Shown: positions 8,772 through 35,528, counted from the whole stretch's first letter. The stretch: DNA of 63,166 bases, filler included, from Licmophora abbreviata (GCA_900291995.1; 6 parts of 6 records of this genome joined end to end with filler, not necessarily neighbours in it), one strand, 5' to 3'. The notes: generated from the sequence alone by a model not told the origin. Numbers and translations are program-made.

Positions 8772-9012
8772 GATATGACAATCGTAGATTTTGTGAGGCG
8801 AGATTTTGTGATTTGCGGTCTGGTTGGCGCATGGCACATTTTCGAAATGTAGCCGAAATCGCACTTGCGTCAAACCAGTCAATCATTTCGATCACGCTTT
8901 CAAAACACATTGTTTGTGGAGTCGAGTTGAGAAATATTCGTGAACAAGGAACAAAGGGGCGAGAAAATCCGAGCTGGACCATCATCATAGTGTGTAAAAC
9001 AGGTATCCCATC

Positions 9013-9226
9013 TGTTGAACATCAATAATGACGTCAGTACCGACGAATCTGAATGGACGGTTGTGAGAAGCCGAAAGCAGAAAAGCATGCGATCGTAAGA
9101 TCACCGATCGCTCACTTTAATTTTAATATCTGGTTTGCAAGTGTTATCACCTCTGCAGTCTCCTTCTATCCTTCAGTGTAGTCTGATTGACTCATTGGAT
9201 AGTATCAGAGACTGCTAGATTCAACA
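9013..9226 (+). repeat. 5' LTR (214 bp)
   Basis: TGTTGAA...TTCAACA 7-bp terminal inverted repeats; identical by eye to 14226-14439. Confidence 0.97.
9112..9118 (+). promoter_or_regulatory. Predicted LTR initiator/TSS (TCA+1CTTT, +1 = A9114)
   Basis: Matches the YYANWYY initiator consensus and coincides exactly with the 5' end of the segment complementary to the PBS; inferred, not mapped. Confidence 0.55.
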
Positions 9227-9241
9227 TATTAAAATTAAAGT
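9227..9241 (+). promoter_or_regulatory. Non-tRNA primer-binding site complementary to the LTR (putative self-priming PBS)
   Basis: TATTAAAATTAAAGT directly abuts the 5' LTR, has no TGG, and is the exact reverse complement of 9114-9128 (ACTTTAATTTTAATA). Confidence 0.75.
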
Positions 9242-9269
9242 CGCAGCAGTCTTCGCAGATTCAAAAAGC

Positions 9270-12200
9270 ATGACAGAATCCAGCGACAACAAGCAGCAGG
9301 ACGACAAATCGTCATCAGGTCCTCGCGGCAACAACCAGCGCAAAGGTGCTACCAAGAAGAACGCCAAGGCTCTTACATACAACAAGTGGAAGTGCACAAC
9401 TCCAGAACTTGAAGGATACATCTATGACAAGAGTGGATATGGACAGACGGAACAGTTCACTCGGACTACCGATCGAATCGGAGAATACGCAGCGACGACA
9501 TTCAAGCATTCTGGGGATGATGTTAGGAAGGCAATTGAAAACAAGTTGGAACCGATGTTTGTGGAACCAGCTGATCCAGTTGACCCAACTAACCCTCTTG
9601 CTTTCAAACGTTGGTCAGCCGAGTATGACAAATGGAACAAGTCCCAAGAGAACTGGAAAAACAACAATTCCCGACTCTTTAACATCGTTCGAGGTCAGTG
9701 TACGGAAGCAATGAAGCAGGAACTGGACTCTAACTCCAAATACCCAGCGATATCGTCGAGCAGTAATGGAATTGCTCTAATCAATCTTCTACGGGAGATT
9801 ATGTTCGATTTCAAAGAGACAAAGTACCATCCGTTGGCGGTCTACAATGCTGTGTTCAATGTCTACAAGGTTCGCCAACACCGATCCACTCTCAACGAAT
9901 ACTATGATCGGTTCAAGAACCAGATTGAAGTTGCCACCAATGCAGGAGGCAATTTCAGCAAGCATCCTGGCTTGATTGACGTTACCAACCCAGGAGCAGA
10001 CGGCGAAAAGTTTATGGCAATCGCATTTATTCTTGGAGCCAACAAGGAGCGATACCATTCATTATGGGCAGACCTTCGTAACAACTTTGCCCTGGGACAA
10101 GACAAATATCCCAAGACGCTCAACGATGCCTTCAACGCACTTCAGCAATATCGTCCTCAGAGTATCTTGCCAACCACGGAATTGGGCGCCAGCTTCCATA
10201 CAGATGGCATTGACCCCGATGATCCTGATCAAGACATTGCATTGTACCAGAAGGGTGATTTCAAGCCGAAGGGTGATTCCAAGCCGTACAAGCAACAACA
10301 AAAGAACCGCAAGAAAAAGACAACTACTGCGGATGACCCACCTGATAAGAAGGGAACACAGTTGACCCAGGACAGTGATACTCAGCAGGACACACCCACA
10401 GCTGAGGACGGAATTCAGCACCTGATCTCCGCAGCACAGAACACGGATGGGTTCGAAGAGTTTGCATTTGCGCAGCAGGCCAATGTGTGTCATATCGAGA
10501 ATGCAATCGTGGCTGGGAGTCTTCCCAGTGGTTGGATCCTTCTTGACAACCAATCTACGTGTGATGTGTTTAGCAACGGGAAATTGCTCCGCAATATTCG
10601 CCGAAACGTTACTTCGCTTCGTATCAACTGCAATGCGGGATCAGCCTCTACAAATCTGATCGGTGACTTGCCAGGATATGGGACAGTGTGGTATCATCCT
10701 AAAGGCATTGCCAACATCCTCTCACTCGCCAAGGTGAAATCACGATACCGTGTCACCTACGACAGCCAAGACGATAACACATTTGTGGTGCACAAGAAAG
10801 ATGGCACTACCAGAGAATTTGTCGAGTCAGCCAAAGGTTTGTACTATCATGATGCAGCTCTGAACGACAGCGACGCCCACGTATTGGTTACTACTGTAGA
10901 TGGTAACAAGTCTAAGTATACCAACCGCGACTACTCTCAAGCTGTCCTCGCTCGTAAGCTTCAACGCATCATGCAGCGTCCCAGCACCAAGGACTTCCTA
11001 CGGCTGATTGATGAAAACCTGATACCGAACTGCCCGATCACTCGTGCAGATGTCGTCGCGGCAGAACATATTTTCGGGCCTGACGTGGGATCGCTTCGTG
11101 GGAAGACAGTTCGAAGGACACCAGCGACCGTCGCAGCAACCAACATCTCGATCCCACCGGAAATTTTGGCTAGGTACCATGACATTGTGCTCTGCACCGA
11201 TATCATGACAGTGAATCGAAACGTATTTCTGATCACCCGATCTCGAGCAATCAATTTTGCTACTGCCGAAGCTCTGCACAATATGCAGCTTCCGACGCTG
11301 CTCAAAGCGCTACAGCGTGTTATTAACCTATATCGCAGTCGAGGATTCAAGGCCAATATGCTATTGTCAGATGGACAGTTTGAACCACTCCGCGACAGTC
11401 TACGAGACAACCTCGTGCAGCTCAATGCTACTTCTCGTGACGAACATGTTGGCGATATCGAACGGTTCCTTAGAACCGTGAAAGAGCGCACGCGCGCCAC
11501 CTGGAACACTCTCCCCTTCAAACGAATTCCGGCACGTATGACGATCGAGCTGGTATGCTCCGTTATCTTTTGGCTTAATTCCCTCCCAGGACAGTCCGGG
11601 CTCTCCAAAGTCCTCAGCCCACGAGCTATAATGACCGGGCAATCAATTAACTATACGAAACATTGCGTCCTCGAGTATGGTGCATACGTTCAAACACATG
11701 AAGAACATGACAACTCCATGCAATCCCGCACTACGGGTGCTATTGCACTACGTCCTACCGGCAATGAACAAGGTGGTTTCTACTTTATGAGTCTCTCTAC
11801 TGGCCGGCGTATCAATCGCAATCGATGGACAGAACTCCCTATGCCGCAGGATGTCATCGACCGTGTACACCAGCTAGCCCGTCAGCAACAAGCCAACCCT
11901 GGTCTTGTCTTCCTTGATATCAACGGACAGCCCGAGCCTGATCCTGACGACGCTATGGATGATGATAACGACTCTGCCTATGTCCCTGAGCCGGAAGAAA
12001 TGAGCATTGCCGAGGATTCTCTGGAAAACGCCAGCATTGCCAATGATGAACCCGAGCCTGATCTGTACCCACATCATCTCGCAGGAGTGAACGAACCGGC
12101 TGTGGAGGTTGCAGAACCACCAATCCAAATCCCAGGAGTGCATCACGAGAATGAGCCGGCTGTGGAGGATGAAGAACCACCAATCCCAGGAGTGCATCCC

Positions 12201-14311
12201 GAGCATGAGCCAGTCGATGATAACGAACCCGCCGTTGACGGTGAAGAACCACCAATCGCAGGAGTGCATCATGAGAACGAGCCAGTCAATGACAACGAAC
12301 CGGCCGGTGAAGAACTACCACCAGAACCACCAATCGCAGAGCATGTTGAGGAACAAAACCCTGCCGCAAATGATGAAATTGGTGCTGCAGAGCAAGAAGA
12401 GCCTATGAACACAGTCGAGGATGAGATGAATGCAAGATATGGGGAAAGAAGTGGCCAATACGATCTACGGCCCCGCCGGACACGTACCTTTGAACACCTT
12501 TTTGCAATGATCGATGATGAAGACCAACTTATTGACGCTATCATACAGCTCAATCACGATGATAGCGATGCACAGTTCGATTCAAAGCAATATTTCGTCA
12601 ACAAGGGTCTCAAAGTATTTGGCAAATCAGGCGAGGAAGCAGTCGAGAGAGAAATTAAACAACTCCACGACCTCAAAGTAATGGAGCCCGTCGATCCAGA
12701 CACTCTATCCAGGGGACAGAAACAGCAAGCCCTCCGCTACTTGATGTTCCTCAAACGCAAAATGTGCGGTCGAGTGAAAGGTTGCGGCTGTGCTGATGGA
12801 AGCACACAGCGAGGGCATATCAGCAAAGATGAGTCAAGCTCCCCTACAGTAGCCCTCGAATCAGTCATGCTGTCATGTGCCATCGATGCAAAAGAAAATC
12901 GGGACGTTGCCACTGTCGACATACCAGGCGCGTTCATGCAGGCCGACAATGACCAACTGGTGCATATGAAACTCGAAGGCCGAATGGCGGAGCTCCTCAC
13001 CAAAGTTGACCCCGTACTGTACCGAAAATACGTGAAAGTCGAAGGCAGCAAGAAAGTCCTCTATGTTGTTCTGCGGAAAGCTCTATACGGTCAACTCCGT
13101 GCCGCCTTGCTATTTTGGCAGCGACTCAGCGCACAACTCGTAGAATGGGGATTCACGATCAATCCATACGACTGGTGTGTTGCCAACAAAATCATTAATG
13201 GCAAACAGTGCACCATCCTTTGGCACGTGGACGACCTGAAAATCTCTCACATCGACTCCGATGTTGTAAGCATGGTCATATCTGACCTCGAAAGTCAATT
13301 CGGTCTGAACAAGCCGCTCACTGTCACACGAGGCACATGCCATGACTACCTGGGTATGCATCTGAGCTTTAAAATTCCGGGAAAAGTCCAAATCACCATG
13401 AAGGACTATATCAAGAAAATGCTCCACGAAATTGACGACGACCCAACCATGGCAGGCGAGGCACCCACACCAGCAGCCCATCATCTGTTCACCGTTAACG
13501 AAAAAGACCCAAGTTTCCTGTCCGAGCAAGAGGCGACTGATTTTCATCATGTCACCGCCAAACTCCTCTTCCTATGCAAGCGTGCTCGGCCTGACATTCA
13601 AACATCCGTATCCTTCCTTTGCACACGTGTTAAGCGCCCTGATCAAGACGACAAGAAGAAGTTAAACCGAGTTATGAAATATCTCCGAAGTACTCAAGAC
13701 ATGCCGCTTACAACATGCTTAACATCTCTTGGTGGATCGATGCATCATATGCTGTCCATCCCGACATGAAAAGTCATACTGGAGCAGTAATGACTCTGGG
13801 AAGCGGTGCATTCTACGGGACCTCCACTCGCCAGAAACTGAACACACGCAGCTCCACCGAAGCTGAACTCGTCGGTGTGAATGATGCCATGTCTCAAGTA
13901 CTGTGGACCCGATACTTCCTCGAAGCTCAAGGCTATCCTATCAAGTCCAACGTCGTATACCAAGACAACCATAGTGCAATGCTTCTTGAGAAGAACGGGA
14001 AGGGATCCAGTAGCAAGCGTACCCGACACATCGACATCCGGTATTTCTTCGTCACTGATCGTATCAAATCGGGCGAAATTCAAGTTCAATACTGTCCTAC
14101 CCAAGAGATGCTCGCCGACTTCTTCACTAAGCCTCTTCAAGGTTCCCTGTTCATTCAGCTCCGCAATCGGATTATGAATTATGATCCTAAAGCAAATGTC
14201 CATGGCAATCAGGATCACAGGAGTGTGTTGAACATCAATAATGACGTCAGTACCGACGAATCTGAATGGACGGTTGTGAGAAGCCGAAAGCAGAAAAGCA
14301 TGCGATCGTAA
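9270..14311 (+). CDS. Gag-Pol polyprotein, interrupted by a frameshift near 13712 between RT and RNase H
   Basis: Protease WILLDNQSTCDVF; integrase D(DIMTVN)-D(SDGQF)-E(HVGDIER); RT VDIPGAFM, KALYG, HVDDL; RNase H WWIDASYAVH, SSTEAELV, QDNHSA, ADFFTKPLQG in the second frame (13715-14311). Confidence 0.92.
12079..12340 (+). repeat. Degenerate coding tandem repeat in the IN-RT spacer carrying four CAGGAGTG copies
   Basis: Peptide units such as EPAVExEEPPIPGVHHE; CAGGAGTG at 12082, 12133, 12187 and 12259. Confidence 0.85.
14214..14225 (+). promoter_or_regulatory. Plus-strand primer (PPT-position) motif ATCACAGGAGTG
   Basis: Lies immediately before the TG of the 3' LTR; short purine-rich core AGGAG. 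Confidence 0.7.
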
Positions 14312-14439
14312 GATCACCGATCGCTCACTTTAATTTTAATATCTGGTTTGCAAGTGTTATCACCTCTGCAGTCTCCTTCTATCCTTCAGTGTAGTCTGAT
14401 TGACTCATTGGATAGTATCAGAGACTGCTAGATTCAACA
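14226..14439 (+). repeat. 3' LTR (214 bp)
   Basis: Direct repeat of 9013-9226; pol stop codon (14309-14311) lies inside it. Confidence 0.97.
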
Positions 14440-14464
14440 CCATCCCATCCCATCCCATTCCATC
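14440..14464 (+). repeat. (CCATC)n microsatellite at the insertion target
   Basis: CCATC CCATC CCATC CCATT CCATC right of the 3' LTR; ATCCCATC on the left flank. Confidence 0.8.
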
Positions 14465-14898
14465 TTTCGTTCGAGTTGATGTCACGCTATCAATCCAAGC
14501 GTCTGAGTACTCTATTTTTTCAACAATAAATCAAAAGTCACACACAAAATCCATGATAAATACTACACGTACCGCTCGAGAGTACACTGAAAGACCCGGA
14601 GTTCAAGAATTCGTTCCGACCTTCGAAGTTGTTCACAGCCGCGCATGCGCGCTGCGCGATCTCATGTGGTGAGGATCTGTTCTGAGATGTGCTCACAAAT
14701 CAAATCTGACCCTGTCAGTTTTGACGGAGACAGCGATCGCCCACAGGACTACAAGCGTCTGAGCAGCAGTGTAAGCAGCAAGTGCTTTCACAAGCGGTAA
14801 GTCGAGGACGAGAAGTGAGACTGAATCTGTTGAAAGTGGAGACAGGTCGACGCGAGAACTGACCTTGACTGAACACAAATAGATTTCGCGCCTCATAA

Positions 14899-31192: not shown

Positions 31193-33082
31193 TCACATCC
31201 CATTCTTCATTGCCTCCAGATCTTGCATGTAATCACCGGTCGGCATGAGGTTGTAGTTCTTGCTCAATACCTGCAATACATTGGGAGAAATGTAGGCGGG
31301 GATCGAGGGACCCAGTCGAATGTTCTTGACGCCAAGGTGCAGCAACGTCAAGAGAACTGCCGCAGCCTTTTGTTCCAAGTGCGATACGGCCAACGATAGA
31401 GGCAAGTCATTGATACTGCAGTCGAGCGCCTTGGCGAGTTCAGTGGCAACAACTACGGCAGAGTATGCATCGTTACACTGACCCATGTCCAACACTCGAG
31501 GAAGTCCGTTCGGCAAGGTCGCATTTAGTAGCTTGTCACTGTGAATCACGCGGTTCTTGGCACAGCCCAAGGTGAGAATGATGGAATCCTCTGGTGTTTC
31601 CTCTGCGAGATCGGTGAAATAGTTCCGATTCCACTGACTACCGTCACAACCTCCAATCAAAAAGATCCTGGACAACTCTCCACTCTTGGCGGCCGCAATA
31701 ATCTGATCCGCCAGTGGCAAGACTGCGCGATGATTGAATCCTGTTGTAAGGTACTGTGGAGGTTGGATTGTACGCTCAAAGCCCTTGCATTCCTTGGCTT
31801 GCGCAATCACCTCAGTAAAGTCCCTATCCTCTCCGATATGCTTCACGTCATCGTAACCTGCTTCATTCATCGTATAGATACGATTCTTGTAGATTCGACG
31901 CGGTTCAATGATACAGTTGGTCGTGACAATGACGGGGCCAGGAAAGGAGGCAAACTCAAACTTTTGATTCTGCCAGGCCGTTCCGTAGTTTCCGACGAGA
32001 TGGTCGTACTTCCTCAGTTCGGGATAGGCATGCGCCGGCATCATTTCACCGTGAGTATACACATTGACACCCGTGCCTTCGGTTTGCTCCAACAAGGCAT
32101 GCAAGTCTTTCAGGTCATGCCCAGAAACGAGAATAGCCTTGCCCGCCACAGCCGTCGTGCAGACTTGAGACGGTCCTGGTTCTCCAAAGACAGTTGCATG
32201 TGCTGTGTCCAGGAGACCGAGTACTTTCGCCGAAATGGCACCGACGTTGTCGACAAGCTTCAACAAGCCATCCATGTCTGCCTCATCGGATGCCAACTGA
32301 ACAAAGCTCTGGTGAATGCCCTCCATGATGGAATCGTCCACATGTCCTAACTGAAGACAGTGCGTCGCATACGCACACGCCCCCTTGAGTCCGTAGGTGG
32401 CAATCTCATTCAACGAAAAACAGTCATCGTTGTTCATCTGTGCCATGCGTGTCGGAATTGAGACGGTCTTTCCAAAGAGTTCCAGATCGTCAAGCGAGTG
32501 GAGAGTGTCGGAAGTGAGCTGTAAGGAAGCAATAGGTTCCGTAGGAGCTGATCCACCCTTGCCTTCGACGACTCCCTTCAAGTGTGTCTGAATGTCCATG
32601 CCCTGTTGAATGTACTGTTGAATCCTCATCTCACTAAAGTTGACATTAGTCAGTGTACTAAAGGTAGCCTTGAGCGTCCACTCATTGGCCTCAGCGAGTT
32701 CCATGTTTGTAGCTCTTGCAGCACGTGCAGCCATGGCCCAACTGCTGACACTCTTGACGACGTGAACGAGGGCATCTTGGATACTAGCCGTTTCAGGTGT
32801 CTTGCCACAGACTCCCAAGGACGTACAGGCAAAGTGATCTTTGGTTTGTTCGCATTGACGACAGAACATCTCGGGGTTGACTACTTTGGCAGAGTACGGA
32901 GCAGCTGCGGTCGAAAATAAGCTAGAGGGAGTCGTCGTAGTACTGCTGGACAGTGATGATACGGTGGGAAGTGCTCGACGAAGCGTGATCCGACGAGGAG
33001 GAGCCACAGTCGTAGTGCGTACGGACGATGCCATCGCACTGCGGGACTTGCCGATGGCCTGGATGGCGGCACGAGAGAACAT
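31193..33082 (-). CDS. hcp: Hybrid-cluster protein (prismane; NO/hydroxylamine reductase) with mitochondrial-type presequence
   Basis: MFCRQCEQT-x5-CTSLGVCGK cubane motif; SGHDL, YTHGEM, TTNC, GGCDG, LGCAK, DMGQCND, EQKA; R/S/T-rich acid-free N-terminus from ATG 33082. Confidence 0.95.
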   Translation of the reverse strand: MFSRAAIQAIGKSRSAMASSVRTTTVAPPRRITLRRALPTVSSLSSSTTTTPSSLFSTAAAPYSAKVVNPEMFCRQCEQTKDHFACTSLGVCGKTPETASIQDALVHVVKSVSSWAMAARAARATNMELAEANEWTLKATFSTLTNVNFSEMRIQQYIQQGMDIQTHLKGVVEGKGGSAPTEPIASLQLTSDTLHSLDDLELFGKTVSIPTRMAQMNNDDCFSLNEIATYGLKGACAYATHCLQLGHVDDSIMEGIHQSFVQLASDEADMDGLLKLVDNVGAISAKVLGLLDTAHATVFGEPGPSQVCTTAVAGKAILVSGHDLKDLHALLEQTEGTGVNVYTHGEMMPAHAYPELRKYDHLVGNYGTAWQNQKFEFASFPGPVIVTTNCIIEPRRIYKNRIYTMNEAGYDDVKHIGEDRDFTEVIAQAKECKGFERTIQPPQYLTTGFNHRAVLPLADQIIAAAKSGELSRIFLIGGCDGSQWNRNYFTDLAEETPEDSIILTLGCAKNRVIHSDKLLNATLPNGLPRVLDMGQCNDAYSAVVVATELAKALDCSINDLPLSLAVSHLEQKAAAVLLTLLHLGVKNIRLGPSIPAYISPNVLQVLSKNYNLMPTGDYMQDLEAMKNGM

Positions 33083-33434
33083 GATGGTGAAGATAGAGAG
33101 AGAGTTTGGATGCTTCAAGTGAATGATCCCAAAAAATATGACGATCTTCTGAACTGCTTTTTCGTTTTTTGTGATGATGATGGGTTCGCATTGATGAAGA
33201 TGGGATGCGACATCTCCAGATGTCATAGTGCGTACTTTTCCATAAATAAGAGTTTCAAGAGGAGTTGAAATTCCAACTCACAAACGTCATGATACCATTC
33301 CATTACAGAAAGTGATCCCATTTGAGTTCGCATTTCGCACGCCGATCACAAAAGTCTGGAAGTTTGGAAGTTGATGGCAAAAAAGAGAACGAATGAGATA
33401 GAGACACACAGTTCGACTCTCTTGAGAATCTATC
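33083..33434. promoter_or_regulatory. Short divergent intergenic region (putative bidirectional promoter) between hcp and the diflavin reductase
   Basis: About 350 bp separates two head-to-head start codons; no specific element recognised. Confidence 0.5.
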
Positions 33435-35528
33435 ATGCTGCGACTCCTATCGTCGGCGCATCCCTCCAGGATCGGCCTACTGCAACTGCACCGACCATGC
33501 CCTGTACTAGCGCCGATGATACGTCGCTTGTTCTCATCCTCGAATGCCATTGACCATCATGAACAACAACAACAACAACAACACATTCGCATCTTGTACG
33601 GCACACAGGGAGGGACAGCTCAAATGTTTGGCATGCAGCTGCAAGACGCCTTGCAAACGACCCAGCCTGAGTCCACCGCCGTGAGTCTCATGGGCCTTCA
33701 TGAAAACAAGCCCCCTGATGTACTACTACCTGTAGTAGGAGTGCCACCCTCACATCCAAGCAACAACAACAAGATTACCGTCGCGGAGGATGCAATTCAC
33801 ATTTTTCTCATTTCCGTTGCCGGCGTCGGCGAACCTCCCGACAATGCCCGAGCCTTTTACGAGTACATTATGAATACTAACAGTACAACGACACTGGACA
33901 AGATGCGCTACACGGTCTTTGGATTGGGCAATCGCAAGGCGCATCCGAATCATTACAATGTCATTGGGAAACGATTGGATCAAAGATTACAAGACCTTGG
34001 TGCAACACGTGTATTTCCATTGGGATTGGGAGATGATGGAGAGTGTATTGAAGATGACTTTGATGTGTGGATGGAGGAGTTGGTAACATCACTTCAACAA
34101 CAGGAAAGAACCAGTGGTATCACCATGGCACAAGAAGGAGCTTCATCAGTACAACCCGTAGTGGGCGAAACAGTGGTGGCACCAGTCAAGATAAACAAAC
34201 AAGCCGAGCTCGATTCTTCCACCACAACAAGTGCACGACGCGTGCCAGACAAATATCCCACCTTGACTCTCTCCCCGCCCAAGAGCGACGTGGTCCGAGA
34301 TGACTTATTGCCAGAAACTTCCACGGAACGCAATGAGCTGTCGTCCTTATACTATGCTCCCGATGTGAACAGATTGGTCGTGGCCGACAATCGACCGCTT
34401 GGCGTGCGGAGCATGGAGTACGGGCTGCGGGAGCTGACAGTGTCGTTGCCCGACCATGTCACGTATGAAGCAGGGGATCATTTGGTCTTGTACCCTCGGA
34501 ACTCAAACTGTGTCACGGAGGCGTTCCTGCAGCTGCTCGACGTGGACCCGCATGCTGTGATCGAGCGCGTCGGTTCCTCGAGCAATGAGCGCACAACCCG
34601 GAACCGGCAATATCCTTTTCCTACCGGTATTTCGGTCATGGAAACGTTATCACATTGTGTGGATCTGGGGGCACCGCCATCACCCGCGTTTGCTCGATTG
34701 CTGTTGGGAAGGCAAGACGTTTCATACAAGGATGAAATTGTGAATCCTCGAAGGACTGTATTGGATTTGGCCTTGGAGGCACATTCAAAGCTGTCCCTAG
34801 AGGAATGGTTGTTCAATCTCCCTCCTATGCAGCCTCGCTTTTATTCCATTGCATCATCACCATTGGCGCACCCACACGACATCCTTCTTACCTACCGACC
34901 CGTAAAATACGTGACATCCAGAGGGGTCTTGCGAGAAGGCGTCTGTACAAGCTACATGCAGAATCTGGGAGTACCGGTAGACGACTCGCCACCCTCTCAT
35001 GTTGTGGCAGCCATTCGATCGAATCCCACGTTCCGACTGCCACGAGATCACACGGCACCCGTGTTGCTCATTGCGGGTGGATGTGGAATTGCACCGATAC
35101 GAGCCTTTCTAGAGGAACGCCTGACGATGTACAATCAAGGCACGGTAACGCAGTTTGGTGAATCTCATTTGTTTCTAGGATTCCGTAGTCCTTTGGACGA
35201 GGTCTACCAACGGATGGTGGCTGAAGCAACAGAGAAAGACGTTGTGTCTGAGGCGCACGTTTCGTATACGGCTGGATGTGTGACGGCCGAACAGAACTGT
35301 CGATTGGTATCCGACACACTGCGCGTCAATGGCTCGCTTGTGTGGGAATTATTCCAAAGGGGAGGATACGCATACCTGTGCGGAGGTGCCCGCACGTTTG
35401 GTGCCGCAATCGAAAGAGAGGTTATGGATGTGTTTCAAGAACACGGCAATCTATCGGCAGAAGAGGCCACAAAGTATCTTCAAAAGCTCATCAAGGAAGG
35501 ACGATTCTGTGAGGATCTCGCAGATTGA
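33435..35528 (+). CDS. Diflavin (FMN/FAD/NAD(P)H) reductase of the CPR/NOS-reductase/CysJ family, with mitochondrial-type presequence
   Basis: Flavodoxin motifs ILYGTQGGTA, GVGEPPDNA, YTVFGLGN, LGLGDD; FAD motifs YEAGDHL, PRFYSIASS, GVCTSY; NAD(P) motifs AGGCGIAPIRAF, LFLGFRS, YLCGG; no N-terminal TM anchor; presequence ending ...IRRLFSS. Confidence 0.9.
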   Translation: MLRLLSSAHPSRIGLLQLHRPCPVLAPMIRRLFSSSNAIDHHEQQQQQQHIRILYGTQGGTAQMFGMQLQDALQTTQPESTAVSLMGLHENKPPDVLLPVVGVPPSHPSNNNKITVAEDAIHIFLISVAGVGEPPDNARAFYEYIMNTNSTTTLDKMRYTVFGLGNRKAHPNHYNVIGKRLDQRLQDLGATRVFPLGLGDDGECIEDDFDVWMEELVTSLQQQERTSGITMAQEGASSVQPVVGETVVAPVKINKQAELDSSTTTSARRVPDKYPTLTLSPPKSDVVRDDLLPETSTERNELSSLYYAPDVNRLVVADNRPLGVRSMEYGLRELTVSLPDHVTYEAGDHLVLYPRNSNCVTEAFLQLLDVDPHAVIERVGSSSNERTTRNRQYPFPTGISVMETLSHCVDLGAPPSPAFARLLLGRQDVSYKDEIVNPRRTVLDLALEAHSKLSLEEWLFNLPPMQPRFYSIASSPLAHPHDILLTYRPVKYVTSRGVLREGVCTSYMQNLGVPVDDSPPSHVVAAIRSNPTFRLPRDHTAPVLLIAGGCGIAPIRAFLEERLTMYNQGTVTQFGESHLFLGFRSPLDEVYQRMVAEATEKDVVSEAHVSYTAGCVTAEQNCRLVSDTLRVNGSLVWELFQRGGYAYLCGGARTFGAAIEREVMDVFQEHGNLSAEEATKYLQKLIKEGRFCEDLAD

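Follow-up and report, generated by a model that had tools for sequence, protein, structure and literature searches.

Structure and insertion site of the element

The stretch of DNA analysed here (the window; 63,166 nt, six parts of six records of the Licmophora abbreviata genome joined end to end with filler) contains a Ty1/copia-type LTR retrotransposon of 5.4 kb (9013-14439), the parts of which described below all lie on the + strand. The 5' LTR (9013-9226) and the 3' LTR (14226-14439) are each 214 nt long, are 100% identical to each other and have the ends TGTTG...CAACA. The element is bordered by a target-site duplication, CCATC, at 9008-9012 and 14440-14444. The TG...CA ends of the LTRs and the short duplication are both features of the Ty1/copia type. 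A polypurine-tract-like sequence, ATCACAGGAGTG (14214-14225), lies immediately 5' of the 3' LTR. In a contig from a marine metagenome (run X2), 8899-9012 is joined directly to 14440-14484; because this contig (one contig, depth 2) shows the empty-site allele, the insertion is polymorphic. The X2 contig contains fewer CCATC-like units than the window, and a contig from run X4 carries a junction between the pol end and the 3' LTR that is identical to that of the window. Among the sequencing runs listed for this sequence, none is an RNA run, and the best DNA run contains a fraction of 0.25 of its words; among the contigs obtained from four runs over 8800-9800, none extends across 9107-9164. The element is a young, recently inserted Ty1/copia-type retrotransposon of a diatom. 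The named best matches of the neighbouring glutathione reductase gene are all from diatoms (73-79% identity). Further along the window, a gene for a hybrid-cluster (Prismane family) protein (31193-33226, - strand) and a gene for a flavodoxin/FAD/NAD-binding reductase (33435-35528, + strand) form a divergent pair.

The gag-pol reading frame (9270-13769) encodes 1499 aa, and its reverse transcriptase (RT) is of the Copia type, matching the Pfam family RVT_2 (PF07727) at aa 1161-1389 with an E-value of 3.2e-15 (56.8 bits versus a cut-off of 31.6). Pol retains an intact RNase H-like end, which is, however, encoded by a second frame (13652-14311) that is out of frame with the first and stops 86 nt into the 3' LTR; the switch is located between ...STQDMPLT and NMLNISWWIDAS... 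(window 13690-13770). This frame change, present despite the identity of the LTRs, could mean that the copy is defective and was mobilised in trans, that the mutation is very recent or that the assembly contains an error. Unless it is such an error, the window copy may depend on the enzyme of other copies for its RNase H. As the pol frame enters the 3' LTR by 86 nt, the polypurine-like sequence and the first bases of the LTR are coding. The coding junction CAGGAGTG/TGTTG corresponds to the conserved C-terminal RSVL motif of the protein family and was found again in most relatives, in which U3 is approximately 90-380 nt long.

A database search yielded 679 protein relatives at E <= 0.001, the best 120 of which are 30-59% identical to the element; among these 120, the nearest named proteins are those of the diatoms Fragilaria crotonensis and Fistulifera solaris, together with one labelled as a Marinobacter MAG. 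We prepared an alignment of 50 relatives (A1). A CCHC zinc knuckle is present in 44 of the 50 aligned proteins and absent from the Gag of the window element, in which a basic stretch replaces it (about aa 330-360; window 10200-10400). The open reading frame of the window copy also contains a tandem 72-nt repeat (81% identical) at 12147-12290, whose translation gives acidic units rich in proline (NEPAV...EEPPI.GVH) within the linker preceding the RT. Pfam searches with sub-regions at E <= 10 recognised neither a protease nor an integrase nor an RNase H family, and the A1 profile, compared with the PDB, matched zinc knuckles only (E ~0.05) and no integrase. A weak lead was obtained from the ESM Atlas, where the nearest clusters to aa 560-900 carry rve, gag_pre-integrs or SH3_retrovirus in 13-78% of their members. 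In Ty1/copia elements, the integrase is encoded before the RT (PR-INT-RT-RH). The RNase H-like sequence that comes after the RT is only about 300 aa long, which leaves no space for a C-terminal integrase.

LTR complement and RNA fold of the window copy

The 15 nt that directly follow the 5' LTR (9227-9241, TATTAAAATTAAAGT) are the exact reverse complement of 9114-9128 (ACTTTAATTTTAATA) inside the LTR. This confirms the central observation of the original prediction, including its extension to 16 bp when T9129:A9226 is counted, and an inverted-repeat search returned the same 16-bp perfect repeat, with a loop of 96 nt. The complement begins, as had also been pointed out, at the A of TCACTTT (9112-9118), and TGG is indeed absent from the primer-binding site (PBS) of the window copy. 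The comparison with related loci described in the next section reduces the conserved core to 14 nt, and we therefore distinguish a predicted self-primer, or 5' arm, at 9115-9128, which is the presumed start of the transcript, and a predicted PBS, or 3' arm, at 9227-9240, which also lacks TGG; A9114 and T9241 form a fifteenth pair in this copy. The 5' arm overlaps the last two positions of a conserved initiator-like motif, GCTCA followed by CT (9110-9116).

RNA folding of 9114-9245, with 200 dinucleotide shuffles as a control, gave a minimum energy of -41.4 kcal/mol versus -21.8 +/- 3.2 kcal/mol for the shuffled sequences (z = -6.1; 0/200 as good), and the 16-bp terminal stem closes this fold. 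Between the arms, a weakly paired stretch (9129-9151) is followed by a long R-U5 hairpin (9152-9219) and by the conserved LTR end TTCAACA (9220-9226), of which 9220-9225 are single-stranded and A9226 is paired with T9129. Three nested stems had been predicted in this region. Two of them, GCAGTCTC (9155-9162) with GAGACTGC (9208-9215) and CTATCC (9166-9171) with GGATAG (9197-9202), are present in the minimum-energy fold as parts of the long hairpin, which also contains an apical hairpin (9175-9196). The third, TCTGG (9129-9133) with CTAGA (9215-9219), is absent from this fold and was rejected, because AGA (9217-9219) pairs with UCU (9152-9154) instead. No match to 8900-9400 was found in Rfam at E <= 1.

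Recurrence and co-variation among related loci

In a scan of JGI/ENA metagenome contigs with A1, 465 stretches were found to encode a relative, and the best 80 of these 465 yielded 78 loci; a scan of viral contigs with the same alignment gave 167 pattern matches and no relatives. Many of the 78 loci are collapsed or circularly permuted assemblies (9 with exact terminal overlaps) and therefore include the junction of pol end, LTR, PBS and gag, and a few of the LTR/PBS junctions in these contigs could be chimeric. All 78 loci were scanned for perfect inverted repeats of at least 12 bp with loops of 55-165 nt. In 48 of them, the 3' arm of such a repeat begins at, or one base before, the ...ACA terminus of the LTR; off-junction repeats numbered just five, in three loci (L046, L064 and L070). 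In two further loci, L003 and L059, where the 5' LTR is cut at the contig end, the 14 nt after TTCAACA exactly complement a segment of the 3' LTR that is preceded by CTCA. In all, 50 of the 78 loci (48 in cis and 2 via the 3' LTR) carry a perfect or near-perfect complement of 12-16 nt, and in the shared geometry GCTCA precedes a 14-nt arm, a structured loop of roughly 100 nt leads from this arm to the LTR end TTCAACA, and the 14-nt complement comes next.

In the other 28 loci, the junction and the LTR interior are not both present: 24 are without a match to the 5' part of gag, L012 and L074 begin inside or at the LTR end, L021 is short of upstream sequence and L055 is a rearranged copy. Among the 78 loci, with the 24 that are without a gag 5' match judged by search, no recognisable junction without a complement was found. 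Two of the loci have structures of their own. In L055 (2400-2960), the RNase H-like part runs straight into the zinc-knuckle region of Gag, with no LTR between them, and in L070 (180-505) two perfect inverted repeats of 22 bp, each with a loop of about 100 nt, overlap one another at a place that is not an LTR end.

The 48 loci with a complement in cis and the window element were combined into a co-variation set of 49 elements. When anchored at the first post-LTR base, the complement is 12-16 nt long in 49 of 49 elements; it is 14 nt in 42, 15 nt in 4, 16 nt in 1, 13 nt in 1 and 12 nt in 1 (15 nt in the window copy). In offset controls placed 25, 45 and 65 nt downstream (144 tests), the complement was never longer than 6 nt, and in 9800 composition-preserving shuffles of the upstream 210 nt it was never longer than 11 nt. 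The arm/PBS complement is far beyond chance.

The arms of these elements differ widely in sequence. Of the 14-nt arm/PBS pairs, 33 are distinct; their pairwise identity averages 48% and is 14% at the lowest, and the 462 base-pair cells include no mispair and only two G:U pairs. A minimum spanning tree of the arms contains 102 differences, and every one of them (102/102) is compensated in the PBS. In the comparison of related families proposed with the original prediction, both complementarity and compensatory changes were thus found to be kept (50 loci; 33 arms). The arms are 86% A+T, and this richness raises random complementarity, but that the match arose by chance or from A/T-rich low-complexity sequence, without any function, is scarcely conceivable: the shuffled and offset sequences stay well short of the observed lengths, and the geometry is repeated in 50 loci with co-varying sequence. 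A chance match was ruled out by these controls and by the co-variation.

Conserved structure is also found between the arms. In single folds of 18 elements, the terminal stem is present in 18 of 18, with z-scores of -3.2 to -6.8 and 0-2 of 200 shuffles as good. Most of the 18 folds follow a common plan, in which the terminal stem encloses a small hairpin (UGGUUU...AAACCA) and a long irregular hairpin with a conserved apical hairpin on top, and 6-7 unpaired bases (UUCAAC) precede the PBS. In the window copy, the weakly paired stretch at 9129-9151 is the counterpart of the small hairpin, and the stems 9155-9162/9208-9215 and 9166-9171/9197-9202 are, as modelled by folding, its own version of the long hairpin of its relatives. 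A first MAFFT alignment of all 45 R-U5-PBS regions (A2) misaligned several 5' arms; the terminal stem was therefore counted by motif anchoring, and a subset of 23 sequences was used for the consensus fold. RNAalifold on a MAFFT alignment of these 23 sequences predicted the terminal stem, and 24 of the 25 predicted pairs show double changes. Paired cells amounted to 90.4%, versus 65.4% in shuffled alignments (0/500 as high) and 39-45% when the partner was slid by 1-3 columns, and the covariation score was 0.641 versus 0.215. The small hairpin and the apical hairpin co-vary among the relatives as well: in the former (helix 3), 92% of the cells are paired, and in the latter (helix 4), 8 of 8 pairs have changed on both sides (23 sequences).

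To place the arms in the phylogeny of the elements, a quick RT tree with 45 rows was constructed; the RT of the 44 other rows is 53-65% identical to that of the window element. The 16 loci with one common arm, CTCTTTTTACGAAA, belong to a single short-branched, well-supported clade, which also includes the variant arms of L035, L026/L030 and L051; outside this clade, the arms of neighbours differ. The contrast between L026 (4917-5048) and L030 (6483-6614), whose RT proteins are identical over 371 columns and whose arms show two differences, both compensated, points to a rapid paired turnover of arm and PBS.

These data bear on the possibility that the LTR complement is incidental and that a host tRNA, a tRNA half or another small RNA primes at 9227-9241, half-tRNA priming being that of the Drosophila copia type. 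Priming by a tRNA or half-tRNA is the rule in Ty1/copia elements (PMC6317226), and the invariant PBS of one clade, seen in 16 loci, would be expected from a trans-acting partner too. However, the 33 PBS sequences, with their low mean identity, are each perfectly matched in the element's own LTR, and none of the 49 PBSs begins with TGG, which excludes priming by a tRNA 3' end. The A+T content of the arms is also unlike that of tRNA stems. One host primer shared by all these elements is excluded by the lack of TGG, the A+T content and the variation of the arms among families, and we regard priming by a host RNA in general as highly improbable. Searches for tRNA genes found none in the window and none in the 40 of the 78 loci that were scanned.

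A different possibility is that the arm/PBS duplex and the R-U5 hairpins constitute a structural RNA, which might serve to package or dimerise the transcript, to control translation or to mask the 5' poly(A) site, and that another primer is used. A conserved and co-varying structure indicates selection on pairing and not on priming as such, 5' RNA structures are required for the replication of other LTR elements, and structured cis-acting elements are described in Ty1 RNA (PMC3592414). A purely structural role nevertheless appears unlikely, given the position of the 3' arm, which starts at the first base after the CA of the LTR, or one base earlier, in 49 of 49 elements; the LTR end is the sole place where the 3' end of a primer must sit. 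Moreover, no alternative primer site is evident, there being neither a TGG-type PBS nor any complement in the offset windows, and more G:U pairs and mismatches would be expected of a structural RNA than the two among 462 cells.

Predicted self-priming and its relation to known systems

In the 45 nt upstream of the arm, GCTCA at -5 to -1 is the sole conserved block among 43 distinct upstream sequences, with C at -2 and A at -1 in 41 of 43 each, and no TATA-like block was found in this interval. Of the 49 elements, 39 have TCA and 46 have CA immediately before the arm, whose first two bases are C/T and then T/A. The Inr-like motif proposed for diatom genes is TCAH(+1)W, with CAY(+1)A for FCP genes, so that +1 follows CA (PMC4686930). 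As GCTCA fits TCAH(+1)W, the predicted +1 is the first base of the arm, C9115 rather than A9114, and, judged from this motif match, the transcript would open with the 14 nt of the arm. The complement reaches 15 nt, and no more, in 4 of 49 elements and 16 nt in 1; these numbers are no higher than expected by chance, and there is therefore no sign of selection for A9114:T9241.

Taken together, these results make it likely that the window element and its approximately 50 metagenome relatives prime their own reverse transcription in the manner of Tf1, without a host tRNA. Of the original proposal that this diatom Copia element self-primes with a 15-nt primer, self-priming is supported by the co-variation; the length is not, since the conserved core is 14 nt. 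Three of the features expected of self-priming elements are present: a PBS that adjoins the 5' LTR and does not match the 3' end of a tRNA (0/49 with TGG), a complement in the element's own LTR that is kept by co-variation (50/78 loci; 33 arm pairs) and additional conserved RNA structure between primer and PBS (consensus fold and 18/18 single folds).

The replication cycle may proceed as follows. Transcription would begin in the 5' LTR right after GCTCA, at C9115, and nt 1-14 of the RNA (9115-9128) would fold back over the structured R-U5 region of about 98 nt and pair with 9227-9240. For this fold-back step, the complementarity, the structure and the co-variation have all been demonstrated by sequence analysis. 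By analogy with Tf1, the element's RNase H would then cut after nt 14, between A9128 and U9129, and the freed 3' OH would be extended across A9226 into U5 and R. The 3' end of the primer must pair with the base after U5, because that base defines the end of the LTR; in 49 of 49 elements, no partner for the post-U5 position is visible other than the LTR segment of the element itself at the presumed start of the RNA. We propose that the LTR ends exactly at A9226 because extension from the primer 3' OH starts there. In every cycle, the primer would again be copied into the plus strand and the arm would thereby supply the PBS anew; such re-making of the PBS would account for the occurrence of 33 arm variants without a mispair. 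The primer could act either in cis or from a co-packaged RNA. The A/U-rich composition of the arms makes the duplex a weak one.

Self-priming is established for Tf1 and Tf2 of Schizosaccharomyces pombe and has been proposed for Tcn1, as described in PMC7175516. In Tf1, according to the same source, nt 1-11 of the RNA anneal to the PBS, and cleavage by RNase H falls between nt 11 and 12 (PMC7175516). The window element resembles Tf1/Tf2 in that an LTR-adjacent PBS complements the start of its own RNA (here a predicted start), in having RNA structure between the arms and in the expected RNase H cut that frees the primer (PMC7175516). It differs from Tf1 in its RT, which is of the RVT_2 (Copia) type, in its arm of 14 nt versus 11 nt and in being known from sequence alone. 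The Ty3/gypsy RT and the integrase downstream of RNase H that characterise the Tf1/sushi branch were not found in the window element, in which the RNase H-like part is the last of pol and terminates within the 3' LTR, and its R-U5 structure is analogous, not homologous, to that of Tf1. To our knowledge, experimental proof of self-priming among LTR elements is confined to the Tf1/sushi branch of Ty3/gypsy. Self-priming has likewise been proposed from sequence for Tcn1 of Cryptococcus neoformans and for the plant Tcn1 chromovirus clade (PMC7175516, PMC6317226); unlike the window element, these are Ty3/gypsy chromoviruses related to Tf1/sushi.

Within the Copia superfamily, self-priming has been predicted in silico for the plant Ty1/copia TAR lineage, which includes Houba and Osr-1 (PMC6317226); the statement in the original prediction that self-complementary PBSs had been predicted for some plant Copia lineages is borne out by this lineage. 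Compared by description, the TAR elements and the window element are both of the Copia superfamily and have a PBS predicted to be complementary to the element itself and not to a tRNA (PMC6317226); TAR is a lineage of land plants, whereas the window element is from a diatom. The fungal GalEa Copia elements have a 'Conserved Hairpin Site', a 9-bp palindrome after the LTR, in place of a PBS, and their authors report that no complement to the palindrome was found in U5 or the LTR (PMC5445492). They share with the window element the lack of a tRNA-type PBS in a Copia element and the presence of a conserved structure at the PBS position (PMC5445492). The PBS of the window element, in contrast, is not palindromic and has its complement inside the LTR.

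The CoDi Copia elements of diatoms, such as Blackbeard and Surcouf (Maumus et al. 2009), resemble the window element, again by description, in their size of about 5-6 kb and their highly similar LTRs. Priming and the PBS are not discussed in the main text of the founding paper on CoDi elements (PMC2806351). The term 'primer binding site' is absent from the accessible text of that paper and of PMC4247016, PMC7017206, PMC8147415 and bioRxiv 10.1101/2025.10.24.684338, and it occurs once in that of the Cyclotella genome paper (PMC7466962). We found no report of self-priming in diatoms in the main texts of the openly accessible literature.

The diatom Copia clade described here is thus predicted to add to the self-priming LTR elements, although the kind of mechanism is already known. 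The signature extends across a whole diatom Copia clade and is widespread in environmental DNA, whereas the precedent among Copia elements is the prediction for one plant lineage. The record of co-variation is an unusually clean one; the primer has a fixed length of 14 nt, and an initiator-like motif anchors the arm. Copia elements are described as the main transposons of diatom genomes and as stress-activated (PMC2806351), and knowledge of the priming mode implies that standard tRNA-based PBS searches would overlook or mis-annotate them. The succession of GCTCA, a 14-nt arm, about 100 nt, TTCAACA and then the complement offers a simple diagnostic, and transformable model diatoms make the mechanism testable.

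A broader interpretation, which we put forward tentatively and consider rather doubtful at present, is that self-priming is the standard mode of a large and old diatom Copia clade, independent of Tf1/sushi, and that each family possesses its own 14-nt code. If this is true, the primer/PBS code of each family would be private and free to drift, because the primer is re-copied into the PBS in each cycle, and, with a 14-nt code read from a fixed initiator, the element would no longer depend on host tRNAs. More speculatively, the PBS might also be hidden from silencing based on tRNA fragments, of the kind known for mammalian 3' tRNA fragments. Hairpin self-priming has been suggested to be ancestral for LTR elements (PMC3601003), and the diatom clade would, if the broader interpretation is correct, provide support for this idea from the stramenopiles.
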